From assembly GCA_963719515.1 (NCBI GenBank), contig CAVRCJ010000007.1, forward strand, positions 32,001-96,000: a stretch of DNA of 64,000 nt. The letters run 5' to 3'. A program made the position numbers and the translations under genes. Below are positions 20,513 through 55,074 of the stretch, one piece after another (the stretch's first letter is position 1; every line of letters starts with the position of its first letter). This DNA is from an uncultured cyanobacterium. GTDB lineage: Bacteria; Cyanobacteriota; Cyanobacteriia; CAKZMO01. Below the pieces are notes generated by a model. The model saw nothing but the letters and a program-made list of their open reading frames with translations. It did not search any database and was not told where the DNA came from.

Positions 20513-21754
20513 ATGCCGCTGTTTAAAGGCCTGCGGGCCAAGTTCGATCTGCCGGTGCAGTTTTGGGTTGTCGCGCTGATTGCGTTTATCAACTCGGTCA
20601 GCTTCACCATCATTATCCCGATTCTCTATCCCTACGCTAAAGAATTTGGGCTGAGTGACTTTCAAGCGAGCTTGCTCACAACGGCATACGCTGTTTCGCA
20701 GTTTGTTGCCACACCGCTGCTGGGGCGGCTTTCCGATGTCATGGGCCGTAAGCCGCTGTTGGTGGTCAGCCTTGTGGGGACGGTCATCGCCAACTTGATC
20801 GCCAGCTGGGCCTCGTTTGCCTGGCTGCTGTTTAGCGCTCGCGTTCTGGACGGCGTCACCGGGGGCAATAACTCCATTGCCCGCGCTGTCATCAGCGACA
20901 CCACCTCCCCTGAAGATCGCCCCAGAGCCTTTGGCCTATTTGACGCGGCCTTTCGCATGGGGTTTGTTACTGGCCCTGCCATCAGCTTTTTTGCCCAGGG
21001 TTTGCCGACCATACCCGGCGTCTCGCCTTTGGGAATGAGCTTTTTTGCGGGCGCGGTGATGGCGGCAATCGCCACCGGCCTGACGATGCTGCTGCTTAAG
21101 GAGACGCTCCCTCAAGATGATTGCGCAGATTCTTTGAAGCTGAGCTGGAAAATGTTTGGCTTTGGGAAAATCATCAGCTCCATTCGCCGCCCTTGCCTGG
21201 GGCAGGTGTTTTTGCTCACCTTTTTGAGCGGCTTTACCTTCACCATTTTCACGTTTGCCTTCCAGCCCTTTTTCCTCAACGTGCTGGGACAGGATGCCCA
21301 AACCCTGGCAATTCTGTTTACCATGATTGGCGTTGTTGGCGTGCTGACGCAGATTTTTGCGGTGGAGCCGCTGACGAAGCGGTTTAACCTAGCGGATATC
21401 ATGTTTGTGGCGATCGCGGTGCGGGGGCTGCTCTTTTTGCTGATGCCGGCGTTCCCCACGGTAGCGGTGTTTGTGGGACTGCTGGCGCTCCTAGGAGTAG
21501 TGAACTCTTTTCCCATGCCGCTGATCAGCTCTATCTTGAGCAACAACAGCGGCGATCGCGAGCAGGGAGAGGTGATGGGCATCAATGCCTCCTACTTGAG
21601 CATCTCGAATGCGATCGGTCCGGCCACGGCAGGGCTGCTGGTGAGCTTTGGCTACGGGACGCCGTTTTGGGTGACGGGGGTGCTGACGCTGCTGACGGCG
21701 GGGTTTGCACTACACCTGAAGCGGGTAGCGGACTGCGACAAGAAGGTGGCTTAG
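20513..21754 (+). CDS. MFS transporter (TetA/DHA1-like)
   Basis: Multiple TM helices; motif A GRLSDVMGRKP; RVLDGVTGG. Confidence 0.9.
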   Translation: MPLFKGLRAKFDLPVQFWVVALIAFINSVSFTIIIPILYPYAKEFGLSDFQASLLTTAYAVSQFVATPLLGRLSDVMGRKPLLVVSLVGTVIANLIASWASFAWLLFSARVLDGVTGGNNSIARAVISDTTSPEDRPRAFGLFDAAFRMGFVTGPAISFFAQGLPTIPGVSPLGMSFFAGAVMAAIATGLTMLLLKETLPQDDCADSLKLSWKMFGFGKIISSIRRPCLGQVFLLTFLSGFTFTIFTFAFQPFFLNVLGQDAQTLAILFTMIGVVGVLTQIFAVEPLTKRFNLADIMFVAIAVRGLLFLLMPAFPTVAVFVGLLALLGVVNSFPMPLISSILSNNSGDREQGEVMGINASYLSISNAIGPATAGLLVSFGYGTPFWVTGVLTLLTAGFALHLKRVADCDKKVA

Positions 21755-22459: not shown

Positions 22460-22819
22460 ATGAAACGTATCTTTACCGCCGTTCTATCCATCGCCGCGAT
22501 CGCCGCCTTTACTGCCCCCGCTGCTGCGCTCTCTGGCCGCCACGCTGAAGAGTTCCACGAAGGCCTAGGCAATAAGCTCTCGGGTCGCTTTGAAGAAGAG
22601 TTTCGTGAAGGTCTGGGCAACAAGCTCTCGGGTCGCTTTGAAGAAGAGTTTCGTGAAGGTCTGGGCAACAAGCTCTCGGGTCGCTTTGAAGAAGAGTTTC
22701 GTGAAGGTCTGGGCAACAAGCTCTCTGGCCGCTTCGAAGAAGAGTTCCGTGAGGGTCTGGGCAATAAACTCTCGGGTCGCTTTGAAGAAGAGTTTCGCGA
22801 AGGTCTAGGCAACAAATAG
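22460..22819 (+). CDS. Secreted tandem-repeat peptide (23-aa signal peptide + 6 x 16-aa LSGRFEEEFREGLGNK-type units)
   Basis: SD AAGGAG upstream; signal peptide ends APAAA; variation among units 2-6 is synonymous only; downstream terminator. Confidence 0.85.
   Translation: MKRIFTAVLSIAAIAAFTAPAAALSGRHAEEFHEGLGNKLSGRFEEEFREGLGNKLSGRFEEEFREGLGNKLSGRFEEEFREGLGNKLSGRFEEEFREGLGNKLSGRFEEEFREGLGNK
22529..22816 (+). repeat. Six tandem 48-bp coding repeats
   Basis: Units 2-4 are identical (ctctcgggtcgctttgaagaagagtttcgtgaaggtctgggcaacaag); no spacers. Confidence 0.95.
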
Positions 22820-22906: not shown

Positions 22907-23288
22907 TTAGCGCGTCGGGCGCTGCTGCACCAGATAGCTCAACACTTGCCCCTGAGCCGGTGTGATTCTAATGCCCTGCTCCCGGATCGCAATCAGCGGG
23001 GTCCACAGTCGTCTTTCGACGTACTGCAGCAGGTGCAGTCGGGCGTTCGCACTAGCGAAGGCTTTGCCTTATCGCATCCTGGACGTCTGCGGGGGAGCCG
23101 ATGATGATGTGCCTCAGGTGTGAGTCTCCGCCTGATTCTGAAGGATCGACACAGCTGGGGGCTGGGGACGGCTCGATTAACACTGGCGCGATGGGTGCTG
23201 TGTCTGGCGCGGAGCCGGGTACATCGCTGGGCAGCGCGGGCTGTGCCGCCTCTTCGGTGGAGGGCGACAGATAAGTTTTAGGTAACAT
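22907..23288 (-). pseudogene. Small conserved hypothetical protein (118 aa when repaired), paralog of 54760-55074, disrupted by a 25-nt insertion
   Basis: Removing 23046-23070 restores GCGATCGC and the frame: ...LRHIIIGSPADVQDAIARLHLLQYVERRLWTPLIAIREQGIRITPAQGQVLSYLVQQRPTR*. Confidence 0.82.
23046..23070. mobile_element. 25-nt insertion into a HIP1 site (SDR5-like very small repeat)
   Basis: GCG[ttcgcactagcgaaggctttgcctt]ATCGC; contains an internal hairpin AAGGC-ttt-GCCTT. Confidence 0.7.
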
Positions 23289-23539
23289 GAGGGACTCCTG
23301 TTTACGTTGGGTTAGGAGTCCCCCAAAAACCGGTCATCACCAAACGTTTACGCGGTTCGAGATGACACAGGTAAAATTACCTCAGTTCTTCCCGACAGCT
23401 GTAACCTGTCGTGTGGGATTAGGGGCCGCATGTTGTCTGCATCAACATGCGGCTCCGCCCGACCGAATTCTTGGGAGACTAAGCCATGGAGACCACGGCT
23501 ACAGCAACTGAGGATAATACATTTGGTCTTTGGAGGCAA
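23289..23539 (-). promoter_or_regulatory. Promoter plus structured RNA leader, copy A
   Basis: Minus strand: TTGCCT (23539-23534)-N17-TATCCT (23516-23511); serial hairpins; CCCAAGAATTCGGTC complementary to GACCGGTTTTTGGG; hairpin GGGACTCCT/AGGAGTCCC covering the SD. Confidence 0.65.
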
Positions 23540-23995: not shown

Positions 23996-25750
23996 CTAGA
24001 TGAAGTCTGCGCGATTAAGATCACCGACGTTCACGTTTTCTAACAGAAGTATGCTGCGTCCGCGAAATTGCACCAGCACATCATCTCGCCGCTGATCTAG
24101 AGTAATCTGACCCAAGCCAATACCAATCAAATTAACTCTGTCACGCCTGTCTTGAAAGTCGGTAACGCGGTCGAATCCTTTACCGCGAATAATGATTTGG
24201 TCGCGTCCGGAGCCAGTCTTTATGACGTCGCTGCCGCCGCCGCCATCAATACGATCATTTCCCGCGCTACCAATCATAACGTCGTTGCCGCCGCCGCCGC
24301 CCAAGCGATCGTTGCCGGCCCCACCAATCAATCGGTCCTTGCCGCCGCCGCCCTCTAAGCGGTCGTTGCCGGCTCCGCCAATCAAGACGTCTCTACCGCC
24401 GCCGCCAAGGAGCGTATCCCTGTCAATACCGCCAACGAGTCGGTCGTTACCGCCCTGGCCTATAAGACGATCGTTGCCGGAACCGCCTATGAGACGATCG
24501 TTGCCAGAACCGCCTATGAGCTGGTCGTTACCGATGCCACCATTGAAGCGATCGTTTCCAGGGGTACCGACTATAACATCATCGTTGGGCGGTGGCAGTA
24601 TTGGTTGTGGCGATGGCAATATCGGCTGCGGCGATGTTGGCTGTGACGGTGCTCCGGTTGGAACTTGGGTAATGTCTATGTTGTAAGTAGTTGAGGCCCC
24701 TCCTATCCGAATAAAGTAGGTTCCAGCCGATAGATTTGTAGATAGTCTGTCACGCCCACTGAATCTCCGAGCAACACGCTCACTAGATTCAGCAACGTTG
24801 TTACCATTTCTATCAGCAAAGATATCAAAAAATATTCTATTGGTTTCTCCACTAAAAACTACACCTAAGTTACTATTTTGGGCCAGTGTAAACTTATAGA
24901 AATCGAACTCATCTAAAGTACCTACGTAATCGCGGATACTGCGCCCTCTAGGTAGTACGCCTAAATCGAGCGCCTGGGCAATATTATTTCCGGGGTCTAC
25001 AGGAATATTGCTTGGCTTTAAAGTTGGTGATAGTCGAAGATCATAGTTTGTTGTTGCTCCATCTACCTCAATGAAGTAGTCTCCGGCTGGTAAGTCTGTA
25101 GAAAGAACATCGCGTACATTTGATCTTCTTACGATGTCTTCACCGCGATCAAAAATTCTATTGTTGTTTCGATCGGAAATAATTCTGATAGTGTTAATTC
25201 TATCATTACCTTCTTCATCAACGACTACTGCAAGATTTCCATTCTCGGGTAGCGTAAGCTTGTAAAAATCGGAGTCGTCCAATTCTCCTATATAGTCTTT
25301 TAAGCTAAGTTCTGCAGAGACTATTCCCAGATCAAATGCTTGATCGATGCTATTTCCAGGGTCTGAAACAAGATTACTTCGTCTTTCGGTTGCTGCTAGC
25401 TGAACGCTATAGTCGACTGTGTTGCTTATGAATGAAGGCACAGATAGCTGAATAAAATAAGCTCCAGCTGTTAAAGGTCTAAAAAATCTTCCTGATGTTG
25501 GAAAGGAGCTTCCCCTAATACGCTCGGTATCTTGAACAATTCCATCTTTATTTATATCAGTAAGTAGAGTGAATGAGGGTGTTCTCGTTATACTACTTAT
25601 GTTTGCTGAAAAATCGCTGTTTTGATTAAGGGTGAATTGATAATACGCAGTCTGGTCTGTGTCATCAAAGGTATCAATGATAGTACGCAGGCTAGACAGA
25701 ACGCCGAGATCATTTGCGGTTGCGAGGGTATTGTCGGACAGTGAAACCAT
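23996..25750 (-). CDS. RTX-type Ca-binding secreted protein with repeated PPC-like domains
   Basis: Three repeats of D..DFYKF/L-TL...GxYFI, a Pro-rich linker and many GGxGxDxLx nonapeptides. Confidence 0.88.
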   Translation of the reverse strand: MVSLSDNTLATANDLGVLSSLRTIIDTFDDTDQTAYYQFTLNQNSDFSANISSITRTPSFTLLTDINKDGIVQDTERIRGSSFPTSGRFFRPLTAGAYFIQLSVPSFISNTVDYSVQLAATERRSNLVSDPGNSIDQAFDLGIVSAELSLKDYIGELDDSDFYKLTLPENGNLAVVVDEEGNDRINTIRIISDRNNNRIFDRGEDIVRRSNVRDVLSTDLPAGDYFIEVDGATTNYDLRLSPTLKPSNIPVDPGNNIAQALDLGVLPRGRSIRDYVGTLDEFDFYKFTLAQNSNLGVVFSGETNRIFFDIFADRNGNNVAESSERVARRFSGRDRLSTNLSAGTYFIRIGGASTTYNIDITQVPTGAPSQPTSPQPILPSPQPILPPPNDDVIVGTPGNDRFNGGIGNDQLIGGSGNDRLIGGSGNDRLIGQGGNDRLVGGIDRDTLLGGGGRDVLIGGAGNDRLEGGGGKDRLIGGAGNDRLGGGGGNDVMIGSAGNDRIDGGGGSDVIKTGSGRDQIIIRGKGFDRVTDFQDRRDRVNLIGIGLGQITLDQRRDDVLVQFRGRSILLLENVNVGDLNRADFI

Positions 25751-31524: not shown

Positions 31525-32277
31525 TTACTCTCCACCGCCGCGCTCCAGATTTTCTAGCCCAGAGACCACCCGCGCCGTCTCAATGCGATCGCCCTGTTGA
31601 ATGTCGTCGACAATGGCCATATCTTCCTCCTCAACGGAGCCAAACACCGCATACTCGCCGTCTAAAAAGCTGAGGTCTGACAAAGCAACGTAGAACTGGG
31701 ACGAGGCAGAATCTGGGAACTGAGAGCGAGCCATAGCGACTGCCCCGCGAACGTGGCGAAGCCGAGGCGGGTCAGTGATACCGGCGGCGGAAAAGGGCTG
31801 GCTGTAGGTCGGCTCGTCGGCCCCTTGAGGCACAATTTCTAGAGGGATATAGCGGGGAGCTCCCGTATCCGGATCGTTAAAGCTGCCGGTGCCCAGGCGC
31901 TCCTGGGGGAAGTCGGGGTCTTTACTTTGAGGATCGCCCGCCTGAACGACGAAGGGTTCGGGCTCCCGGACGACGCGATGAAACGAAACGCCGTCGTATA
32001 CGCCCCGCTCGACCAAATCCACGAAGTTACCGCCGGTTACCGGCGCGTACTCACCGTTGACTTCAACGGTAACCGGCGCGCCGTTAATGACCAGCTCGAC
32101 CACTGCGGTGCCGTTGAGTCTGGGCAAGGACGACATGCTGGGCATATCGCTCACGACGTCGCCGTCGCTAGACGGGGAGCAGCCGCTAAGAGTTAGGGCG
32201 GCGATCGCCACTAGCACAAAGAGCCGGTGAAGCGTACGGCGGGACGCGGAATTCCCTAGCAGATTGAATCCATTCAT
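31525..32277 (-). CDS. Cyclophilin-type peptidyl-prolyl isomerase (putative lipoprotein)
   Basis: APVTGGNFVDLV, FHRVV, GAVAMARS...SASSQFY, YAVFG. Confidence 0.92.
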   Translation of the reverse strand: MNGFNLLGNSASRRTLHRLFVLVAIAALTLSGCSPSSDGDVVSDMPSMSSLPRLNGTAVVELVINGAPVTVEVNGEYAPVTGGNFVDLVERGVYDGVSFHRVVREPEPFVVQAGDPQSKDPDFPQERLGTGSFNDPDTGAPRYIPLEIVPQGADEPTYSQPFSAAGITDPPRLRHVRGAVAMARSQFPDSASSQFYVALSDLSFLDGEYAVFGSVEEEDMAIVDDIQQGDRIETARVVSGLENLERGGGE

Positions 32278-34572: not shown

Positions 34573-35938
34573 TAACGATTTCATTGGCGGTCGCGATCTA
34601 GAATCCACCGGCTTTGCCTGGTGGTCTGGAAACGCTCGATTGATTAATTTGTCCGGTAAGCTGCTGGGCGCTCACGTCGCTCACGCAGGTCTGATCGTCT
34701 TCTGGGCGGGTGCAATGACCTTGTTTGAGGTCGCTCACTTCGTTCCTGAAAAGCCCATGTATGAGCAGGGTCTGATCCTGCTGCCTCACCTGGCGACGCA
34801 AGGCTGGGGCGTTGGCGCCGGCGGTGAAGTCATCAACACCTTCCCCTACTTCGTAGTGGGTGTGCTTCACCTGATTTCCTCCGCCGTTCTCGGCCTTGGT
34901 GGTATCTACCACGCCGTTCGCGGCCCCGAGACGCTAGAGGAATACTCTTCGTTCTTCGGCTACGACTGGAAAGACAAGAACAAGATGACTACCATCATCG
35001 GCATTCACCTGCTGCTTCTGGGCGGTGGTGCCTTCCTGCTGGTGCTCAAGGCAATGTTCTTTGGCGGTGTCTATGACACCTGGGCTCCCGGCGGCGGTGA
35101 CGTCCGCGTGATTACCAACCCCACCCTTAATCCGGCCATTATCTTTGGCTACTTAACTAAGGCTCCCTTCGGTGGAGAGGGTTGGCTGATTGGTGTCGAC
35201 AACATGGAAGACATCATCGGTGGCCACATTTGGGTCGGTCTGCTCTGCATTACCGGCGGCATTTGGCACATTCTCACCAAGCCGTTTGCTTGGGCGCGTC
35301 GTGCCTTTGTCTGGTCTGGTGAGGCATACCTCTCTTACAGCCTAGGTGCGCTTTCTCTGATGGGCTTCCTCGCTGCGATGTACGTGTGGTTTAACAACAC
35401 GGCATACCCCAGTGAGTTCTATGGTCCTACGAGTTCCGAGGCGTCTCAGGCTCAGGCATTCACCTTCATGGTGCGTGACCAGCGTCTGGGTGCGAACGTC
35501 GGTTCTGCTCAAGGCCCGACCGGCCTAGGTAAGTACCTGATGCGCTCTCCCACGGGTGAGATCATCTTCGGTGGTGAGACCATGCGTTTTTGGGACTTCC
35601 GCGGTCCTTGGCTGGAGCCCCTACGGGGACCCAACGGCCTTGACCTCGATAAGATCCGTAACGACATTCAGCCCTGGCAGATTCGCCGCGCGGCTGAGTA
35701 TATGACCCACGCTCCGCTGGCGTCCATCAACTCTGTGGGTGGCGTCATCACCGAGCCGAACTCCTTCAACTATGTGAACCTGCGTCAGTGGTTGGCTGGA
35801 GCTCACTTTATTCTCGGCTTCTTCTTCTTGATTGGTCACCTCTGGCATGCGGGCCGCGCTCGCGCCGCTGTGGCTGGCTTTGAGAGGGGCATTGTGCGTG
35901 AGACTGAGCCGGTTCTCTCGATGCCGGATCTCGACTAG
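34556..35938 (+). CDS. psbC: Photosystem II CP43 protein
   Basis: GTG start overlapping the psbD end; [31 protein letters not shown]. Confidence 0.99.
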
Positions 35939-53896: not shown

Positions 53897-54271
53897 TTAC
53901 CAACGCACTAAAAACTTTCGCGTATTGCGGGTTGCCAAAGTTAAATTATTCGCCAAAGCGATCGCGGCAATTTTCAAATTGTATGAACCGATTGGAGTAC
54001 CTGAACTTGCTAACCCTGCTCGAATCTGACCCGCTAGCAGCGCCGCCTCATCCTCAAAGGGCAGCGAGATAAACCGTGTCAGAAACGCTTGCTGCCAATC
54101 CAGCGTACGGGCCGGGTTATTACTGCGAAATGACCCGTAAAACAACTCAGCCTTGACCACAGAACACACCGCCATGTCCTCAATCGGGGTAGACAGTAGG
54201 CGATCGCGCACCGATGGCGAACGACCATTCAAATACACCACACACACATTCGTATCCAGCAGATAGCGCAT
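53897..54271 (-). pseudogene. vapC: VapC PIN-domain toxin, probably degraded at the C-terminus
   Basis: YLLDTN, VVKAELFYG; the usual D in IG.YD reads N; the terminal THN.REF motif reads TRNTRKF and the ORF stops shortly after. Confidence 0.75.
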
Positions 54272-54498: not shown

Positions 54499-54759
54499 TT
54501 GCCTCTTCGCCGCAGATGCGATAGATTACCTTGCTAGAAGCTGTAATCCGATGCAGCTTGACGACAACCCCAAAAATTTGGTCAAGACGGGTACGATCGC
54601 CATCACCAGTGACGATCGCACCCTGACCCTTAGACAGGAAATCGAGCTGTCTTCGAGCTAGAGAGTATTGTATTTCAATACTTCTGGCCATCCTAGACGC
54701 CCAAGACAAGGGATGACCGATTTTTGGGTTTTCTTACCCACACAACTCAAAGAAAACCC
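54499..54759 (+). promoter_or_regulatory. Promoter plus structured RNA leader, copy B
   Basis: TTGCCT (54499)-N17-TAGATT (54522); serial hairpins; CCCAAAAATTTGGTCA (54569-54584) complementary to TGACCGATTTTTGGG (54714-54728); hairpin TGGGTTTTCTT/AAGAAAACCCA reaching the ATG. Confidence 0.65.
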
Positions 54760-55074
54760 ATGACATTTCTATATCCTGAGCTGCCCTCCCATGGCGAGGC
54801 AGCACTCAGCTTGCCGTCCACCGAGCAAGCACCAAACCTGCTGACCACCCCCGACCCCGGCCCCAGCGGTGAATATATCCGCCATATTCTCGTCGGCTCC
54901 CCCGAAGGCGTCCGCGAAACCATCTACCGGCTGCACCTGCGCCGCTACGTCGAGCAGGCCCAGTGGACCGGCCCCATCAAAATCGGCCCCAACGGCATCC
55001 ACATCACCCCCAGCCAAGGGCAGATCCTCTTCTACCTGATGCGGCTGCGATCTCTAGACATGCCTACCGGCTAG
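54760..55074 (+). CDS. Small conserved hypothetical protein (104 aa), paralog of 22907-23288
   Basis: IRHILVGSPEGVRETIYRLHLRRYVEQAQWT...GIHITPSQGQILFYL aligns without gaps to copy A. Confidence 0.8.
   Translation: MTFLYPELPSHGEAALSLPSTEQAPNLLTTPDPGPSGEYIRHILVGSPEGVRETIYRLHLRRYVEQAQWTGPIKIGPNGIHITPSQGQILFYLMRLRSLDMPTG

Follow-up and report, generated by a model that had tools for sequence, protein, structure and literature searches.

Leader RNAs that fold into seven covarying helices within about 220 nt are rare, and most of the known ones have proved to be riboswitches, ribozymes or scaffolds of ribonucleoproteins. A leader of this kind is present twice in the stretch of DNA analysed in this study (referred to below as the window: 64,000 nt from an uncultured cyanobacterium, positions 32,001 to 96,000 of contig CAVRCJ010000007.1, assembly GCA_963719515.1), in each case directly upstream of a small protein gene. 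The two loci, copy A on the minus strand and copy B on the plus strand, lie where an initial annotation, made from the sequence alone, had placed two homologous small open reading frames (ORFs) with the same upstream architecture. This view has been borne out, well beyond what chance would give: a covariance model seeded with A-type leaders (R1) finds copy B at 83 bits, and all nine elements listed in that annotation are present in both leaders. The module has a structured, putatively cis-regulatory leader and is unusual in its size, its copy number and its tie to an unannotated protein family, and we know of no cis-regulatory RNA with such a layout.

Several described systems resemble the module in part. 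In translational riboswitches, as in the leader, a covarying closing helix around hairpins is followed by a hairpin that sequesters the Shine-Dalgarno (SD) sequence, and the junction nucleotides are conserved; the aptamer of the lysine riboswitch, for example, is a five-helix junction. In contrast to these riboswitches, the leader has neither an Rfam match nor an alternative pairing that could be found, and it occurs in approximately 45 copies. Autoregulatory leaders of ribosomal proteins and other RNA-binding proteins likewise have a structured region next to the ribosome-binding site, and the gene behind them encodes a small basic protein, but the protein of the module matches no known RNA binder (Pfam, NCBIfam, PDB) and the module is highly multicopy. 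HEARO (the omega-RNA of IscB) is a large structured RNA with many copies in some cyanobacteria, and it shares with the module the link to a single ORF and the dozens of copies per genome; the ORF of the module, however, has only about 100 codons and encodes no nuclease or transposase domain, and its copies are divergent rather than near-identical. Finally, the mRNAs of the type I toxins hok and aapA1 carry the SD within a stable hairpin of a highly folded leader and, like the module, exist in many dispersed copies, whereas the proteins described here, of 91–158 aa, combine an acidic tail with a soluble basic domain rather than being short hydrophobic peptides.

Folded separately, leaders A and B gave the same arrangement: the 5' end forms a hairpin, a long-range helix (CCCAAGAAUUCGGUC / GACCGGUUUUUGGG) encloses four more, and the last hairpin reaches up to the AUG. 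None of the 200 dinucleotide shuffles was as stable as either leader (z-scores of −4.92 for A and −5.85 for B). The seven helices comprise P1, P0, which closes a five-way junction with P2–P5, and P6, located directly 3' of P0.

The leader RNA of copy A (23289–23505, minus strand) is matched by R1 at 194 bits over 23286–23507. It carries, in order, P1, the hairpin of the predicted 5' end (23481–23501; compensatory changes in 6/6 pairs), the 5' strand of P0 (CCCAAGAAUUCGGU, 23462–23475; 10/13 pairs compensatory and recovered by RNAalifold on the MAFFT alignment), the long hairpin P2 (23421–23459; fold and RNAalifold, 11/13 pairs compensatory), the GACAG/CUGUC hairpin P3 (23394–23410), the variable hairpin P4, whose base alone is modelled (23365–23387), the CAUC/GAUG hairpin P5 (23335–23364) and the 3' strand of P0 (ACCGGUUUUUGGG, 23322–23334), the last four being placed by the fold and the covariation alignment. 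P6 (23292–23321; GGACUCC/GGAGUCC, 7/7 pairs compensatory) contains the SD GGAG and ends 3 nt 5' of the AUG. In copy B the leader RNA (54534–54759, plus strand; R1 83.3 bits over 54531–54762) is built in the same way, with helices placed by the fold: P1 at 54538–54559, the P0 strands at 54569–54582 (CCCAAAAAUUUGGU) and 54716–54728 (ACCGAUUUUUGGG), P2 at 54586–54624, P3 at 54633–54651, P4 at 54657–54688, P5 at 54689–54715 and P6 at 54726–54759. RNAfold pairs GGGUUUUCUU with AAGAAAACCC in the latter helix, with a GGG that is common to P0, and in the covariance model P6 of copy B corresponds to 54729–54734 / 54751–54756.

The initial annotation had proposed covariation among homologous leaders as a check, and it proved strong, both by RNAalifold and in alignments of 70 and 20 leaders. 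R1 was built from a seed of 22 A-type-like leaders, without any B-type sequence, and a manual structure of 52 pairs. A check independent of this model was provided by a plain MAFFT alignment of 42 leaders, from which RNAalifold recovered the long-range helix, P2, P3 and the base of P4; 19 of the 28 pairs that it predicted showed at least one compensatory double change. In the R1-fitted alignment of 70 leaders (own genome plus own family), 92.5% of the cells pair, compared with 36.7–49.3% when the partners are slid by 1–3 columns; changes on both sides were found in 46/52 pairs and covariation supports all seven helices. Double changes occupy 515 cells of the alignment, compared with 155 on average after shuffling, and the observed values were reached by 0/500 shuffles, a count that is not a probability because the paralogs are related. 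For 20 leaders representing several genera and families, fitted in the same way, 88.4% of the cells pair (33–50% when slid) and 41/52 pairs are compensatory. B-type copies score 64–107 bits with R1 despite their absence from the seed.

The G-U cells outnumber the A-C cells (285 and 106, respectively), and pairing reaches 92.4% on the sense strand and 87.3% on the opposite one. The excess of G-U cells indicates that the folding strand is the sense strand and points to an RNA rather than a DNA structure. Across 42 paralogs, the joining strands and the ends of the helices contain nucleotides that are invariant or almost so (CCCAA, CGG, CCU, CC), and in P3 and P5 the sequence itself is conserved on both strands. 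The HIP1 palindrome GCGATCGC, of which there are 81 octamers within the window, in keeping with a cyanobacterial origin, is frequently found in P2. A candidate pseudoknot, in which the ANCCC of the P2/P3 joining strand would pair with the G-run, was rejected, since A-type GCCACC and AGCCC types fail to covary with the G-run context.

The two strands of P0 are the elements 3 and 8 of the initial annotation, where they had been taken for an antisense/target pair competing with the hairpins that are here P5 and P6 (elements 7 and 9). This competition did not hold: the pairing is the structural closing helix of one fold, and in both the minimum free energy (MFE) folds and the covariance model P0 coexists with P5 and abuts P6, with which it shares only 1–3 nt. 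A defined conformational switch likewise found no support in a scan of all column pairs of a 69-row leader alignment, which yielded short GGG:CCC or G-U runs with little variation of the pair type, and no covarying alternative helix.

The upstream regions of the paralogs align from CTTGCC-N17/18-TAnnnT through the entire leader, and TTGnnn-N17/18-TAnnnT stands at a fixed place in 41/45 copies, as opposed to 3% of random 90-nt windows of the genome. The end of the −10 element lies at a median of −223 relative to the ATG. The hexamers of the promoter suggested earlier are present as given, namely a −35-like TTGCCT (copy A, 23534–23539, minus strand; copy B, 54499–54504, plus strand), the motif of which is conserved among the paralogs, and a −10-like TATCCT (copy A, 23511–23516, minus strand) or TAGATT (copy B, 54522–54527, plus strand), with a 17-nt spacer in both. 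From this conservation we infer a promoter with putative transcription start sites at ~23503–23505 in copy A and ~54533–54535 in copy B. No terminator-like site was detected between leader and ORF at either copy.

At both copies the last hairpin buries the SD, as had been proposed. Both the SD and the stretch from it to the AUG lie in P6, 7/7 pairs of which covary in the 70- as well as in the 20-leader alignment. The local MFE of positions −45 to +6 averages −16.5 kcal/mol in the modules, compared with −8.0 kcal/mol in 150 control ORFs, and 49% of the modules fall below the 5th percentile of the controls.

The two copies, 31 kb apart, are both real, but the ORF of copy A is broken and the scale of the phenomenon is far larger than the annotated pair, with 45 copies in the genome and further ones in several families. 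A tblastn search with the copy B protein against the own genome (G000; 5.28 Mb, 21 contigs) gave 54 high-scoring segment pairs at E≤1e-3, and a start codon could be placed for 45 loci. R1 gave 49 matches at E≤0.01, of which 45 were of full length (E≤4.6e-11). All strong leader matches of this genome directly precede a family ORF or its decayed remnant. The homology of the paralogs extends from about −255 to the stop codon; the sequence downstream is not common to the copies, and in most of them a G+C-rich hairpin follows the stop codon. The paralogs are 45–90% identical, i.e. old and divergent, and compensatory changes preserve the helices.

The surroundings of the copies are heterogeneous. 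Among 79 ORFs flanking 44 copies there was no constant neighbour gene, and no recognisable phage structural, integrase or repressor domain among their Pfam matches. The neighbours comprise housekeeping genes (PsaL, PsbA, chorismate synthase, CobN) and, at many copies, PIN, MNT, Uma2, Mrr, MmeI-methylase, XisH, TIR-COR, NYN and IS200 genes. Neither terminal repeats nor an own transposase nor common flanks were found for the module.

Several loci are disturbed. The leader of one of them (L013), located ~148–546 nt upstream of the ORF start at C1:182044, is split by a segment of ~400 nt that is 98.5–98.7% identical to sequences within 2 kb of the copies at C1:96064 and C3:786668, and which is probably a small mobile repeat. 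Decayed paralogs at C3:759140–759525, C11:453995–454400, C10:637700–637995 and C13:42303–42504 comprise two with 1-nt frameshifts, one with an in-frame TAG and one leader remnant; the last, a weaker R1 match, consists of the leader and the first codons only. These paralogs could reflect birth-and-death turnover of the family or indel errors of the assembly.

The protein family is widely distributed among cyanobacteria. A profile constructed from 40 paralogs retrieved 283 cluster representatives (E≤1e-3) from among 1.84 billion proteins, with lengths of 36–185 aa among the 150 representatives listed, and matched 95 of 301 sampled genomes of the class, frequently with many copies each. Named homologs, all of them described as "hypothetical protein", come from Nodosilinea, Leptolyngbya, Almyronema, Phormidium tenue and others, and those of the copy B protein from metagenome-assembled genomes (MAGs) of the Elainellaceae; a related-locus search of genome contigs returned close Elainellaceae MAG relatives only. 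R1, the seed of which is narrow, matches 9/17 genomes of the own family of the window and 17/151 genomes of the class, in four families (f1, f9, f16 and f17). At 16 of 23 loci from other families an R1 leader lies directly upstream of the ORF, and 7 had no match at E≤1e-4; one of these other-family leader loci is cut by the end of its contig. One genome (G076) has an R1 match and no protein match, but the DNA downstream is masked as N, so that the case is uninformative. Stops that appeared to lie inside the ORFs of one genus (g4) turned out to be natural stop codons. In four genomes of the genus of the window (G009–G012), assembled into many short contigs, many leader matches lie no more than a few hundred bases from a contig end, which suggests that short-read assemblies tend to break at the module or at repeats close to it; the copy numbers of 6–13 are therefore probably underestimates.

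The intact ORF of copy B (54760–55074, plus strand) encodes 104 aa; the N-terminal tail of the product is acidic and disordered, and its basic domain comprises ~65 aa. Within the family the conserved C-terminal domain has a median isoelectric point of 10.2, as compared with 4.2 for the N-terminal tail, and several Arg, His, Tyr and Trp residues vary little or not at all. Over 34 pairs of paralogs that are 80–97% identical, the differences at the three codon positions number 384/217/892; the small-protein ORF is under purifying selection. AlphaFold models made with 40 and 112 sequences agree with each other (pLDDT 66 and 74, respectively; low confidence in the N-terminal third) and show a beta-alpha-...-beta domain (strand 37–46, helix 48–60, strand 89–98) that lacks a long helix. 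The charge and the pattern of conserved residues would fit a nucleic-acid binder.

A structured leader ahead of an uncharacterised small-protein family, as described initially, is what the searches returned. There was no Pfam family for the proteins of the window and none for 28/29 distant representatives, no NCBIfam match (0/10 sequences), no PADLOC-DB match for any of 40 paralogs at E≤0.1 (0/40), no significant PHROGs match and no usable match in a sequence-profile search of PDB; ESM Atlas matches were clusters of cyanobacterial hypothetical proteins only. In one metagenomic representative (P0085, 87 aa), part of the family domain is present and, in a C-terminal extension behind it, a sequence that matches the C-terminal portion of the Pfam domain Trypco1 (trypsin co-occurring domain 1) at 28 bits; this is a single case, and it may be a chimeric gene call.

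Copy A itself is interrupted within its ORF (22907–23288, minus strand; ATG at 23288). The initial frame ends after 78 codons at a stop in 23054–23052, and the part of the protein that begins RLHLLQYVE lies in a different frame. The cause is a 25-nt segment (23048–23072, minus strand), which shifts the frame, holds a TAG and can form two perfect mini-hairpins; GCG stands immediately before it and again as its last three bases. In a congeneric ortholog (L144; ~84–89% identical) a different 26-nt segment with two hairpins is found 3–6 nt further along, preceded by GCC and ending in GCC. In silico removal of either insert restores a full ORF of 118 codons. Downstream of the insert, the differences between copy A and L144 are distributed over the codon positions as 3/4/18, and this third-position bias indicates that selection acted on the downstream frame during most of the time in which the two diverged. 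The interruptions reflect either recent, parallel disruption or an insert that is bypassed. A near-copy of the copy A insert (26/28 nt) was detected in non-coding DNA of the same genome (G000:C14:275701–275728). A synteny comparison with four congeners, aimed at insertion polymorphism, was uninformative, as the flanks of copy A hardly align, with the exception of the gene at the left end of the query (413-aa ORF, 20513–21754).

Taken as a mechanism, each locus would be an autonomous module consisting of a sigma-70-like promoter, the ~220-nt structured 5' leader and the small protein gene. P6, which pairs the SD, would keep the gene off by default; P0 and P6 could stack, with the GGG common to both in B-type copies, and a partner acting in trans would open the leader or lock it further. 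We lean, by a little, towards the view that the leader is such a default-off translational control element with a trans-acting partner, preferably the encoded protein or its paralogs. A protein partner of this kind would create feedback across the whole family, which is proposed because the C-terminal domain is strongly basic. The candidates for the partner are, in descending order, the own basic protein, a small ligand (riboswitch), and a toxin-antitoxin-like or trans-antisense role. Since no covarying alternative fold has emerged, a switch is not established, and nor is an antisense mechanism of the C4 type.

A number of results weigh against this view. The 70- and 20-leader alignments were fitted to R1, so that their pair counts favour the modelled structure, and the shuffle counts are subject to the relatedness of the paralogs mentioned above. 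The column-pair scan revealed no covarying alternative fold able to release the SD. A consensus promoter scanner calls the promoter of neither copy, as only 8 of 12 positions match and its threshold is 9. The unpaired probability of positions −15 to +3 is only moderately lower in the modules than in the controls (0.34 vs 0.44), and just 4% of the modules fall below the 5th percentile of the controls. For the putative binding of the protein to the leader, charge is the one indication, and comparisons of the structural models gave nothing at E≤0.001 with Foldseek against PDB, nothing at E≤0.001 in BFVD and a best Z of 4.0 with VIA-align, the rows of which (Z≤4.0) included ferredoxin-like, PII-like, MinE, PilO and E2 folds.

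Another explanation is that the junction of P0 and P2–P5 is the aptamer of an undescribed riboswitch, in which a small molecule or ion would shift the sharing of the G-run between P0 and P6 and so gate all copies. The multi-helix junction with a covarying closing helix abutting the SD-sequestering hairpin would suit an aptamer, as would the near-invariant helix-end and joining nucleotides of the 42 paralogs, the conservation of the motif across several families and the GGG of B-type copies, which both P0 and P6 can claim and which belongs to a G-run able to pair with several CCC runs. However, in the 45 own copies and the related loci examined the leader precedes only one uncharacterised family, with no functionally coherent genes that would hint at a ligand, and a single gene family of no known function offers no metabolic logic. 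Moreover, the minimal overlap of P0 and P6, their coexistence in the MFE folds and the outcome of the column-pair scan do not provide mutually exclusive helices, and the two-strand sequence conservation of P3 and P5 would fit recognition by a protein as well as tertiary contacts. Approximately 45 copies per genome are, to our knowledge, without precedent for a riboswitch. On balance we consider this explanation quite unlikely.

The leader matches no named Rfam family, in agreement with the initial annotation. A scan of the window with Rfam 15 at the gathering thresholds detected only IsrR, and cmscan of both loci at E≤10 returned nothing beyond chance rows (snoRNA, miRNA, Rothia-sucC; all at E≥1), with C4, c4 and isrK absent. 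The analogy with the phage P1 C4 and P4 CI RNAs drawn in that annotation is attractive in that the leader has an internal complementarity of 14–15 bp upstream of a small gene, but it was not upheld, as the complementary segments here make up a structural helix of a single fold and nothing in the context is phage-like. These results bear on a further alternative, namely that the module is a selfish or conflict RNA-protein pair (similar to type III toxin-antitoxin systems), or that elements 3 and 8 act in trans on sister copies in a C4-like manner. In favour of a conflict pair are the large number of dispersed, autonomous copies and their birth-and-death decay (through frameshifts, stops and truncation), the accumulation of matches near contig ends in fragmented relatives and the frequent PIN, MNT, Uma2, Mrr, MmeI-methylase, TIR-COR, NYN and IS200 neighbours; housekeeping genes are, however, among the neighbours too, and PADLOC-DB and PHROGs returned nothing significant. 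Unlike the RNA of type III systems, the leader is a single non-repetitive unit, without tandem repeats or a terminator before the ORF. As for action in trans, elements 3 and 8 are almost identical among many copies and could pair between them, but their covariation inside each copy shows that they pair in cis, and no promoter-like site was called opposite either leader by the scanner, which misses the sense promoters as well. We judge this alternative decidedly unlikely in both its forms.

It is very improbable that the inverted repeats act as DNA, e.g. as a site at which a dispersed repeat recombines or transposes, with the leader structure as a by-product: the high and dispersed copy number, the interrupted leader at C1:182044 and the HIP1 palindrome in P2 would be compatible with this, but the pairing shows the strand specificity of an RNA, the paralogs differ by helix-keeping changes in a way that is unlike a near-identical active element, the module has no terminal repeats, transposase or common flanks, and the structure stops exactly at the SD and AUG.

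Some other features of the window deserve mention. The IsrR match, the antisense RNA of isiA, is of full length (34967–35153, minus strand; 164 bits against a gathering threshold of 52). A PIN-domain (VapC-like) gene (53897–54271, minus strand), with a short partner ORF upstream of it extending to ~54425, divergently adjoins copy B. A 119-aa ORF (22460–22819, plus strand) consists of five near-identical tandem units (…EEFREGLGNKLSGRF…), and the repeats are open on the opposite strand too. A 584-aa ORF (23996–25750, minus strand) carries GGxGNDxL nonapeptide-like repeats at its C-terminus, which we take to resemble an RTX-type calcium-binding region.

Full-text literature searches revealed no description of the motif or of the protein family, although the supplementary tables of one recent study (PMC12873609) could list an overlapping structure. 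This 2026 study screened 202 cyanobacterial genomes for RNA structures, with 931 KEGG-annotated gene groups as anchors, and by this design an unannotated family, such as that of the module, would fall outside its coverage.

In the boldest reading, the leader is the sensor of a new, large, cyanobacteria-specific class of riboswitch-like or ribonucleoprotein switches, with up to ~45 copies per genome each gating one small basic protein of an expanded family. We regard this as unlikely. If true, it would mean that one signal, or the pool of the family proteins, switches dozens of variant effectors together, and the gated small basic proteins probably bind nucleic acid. The protein family is widespread yet without annotation, and the module provides both a defined candidate for a new class of regulatory RNA and a first handle on the function of this family.

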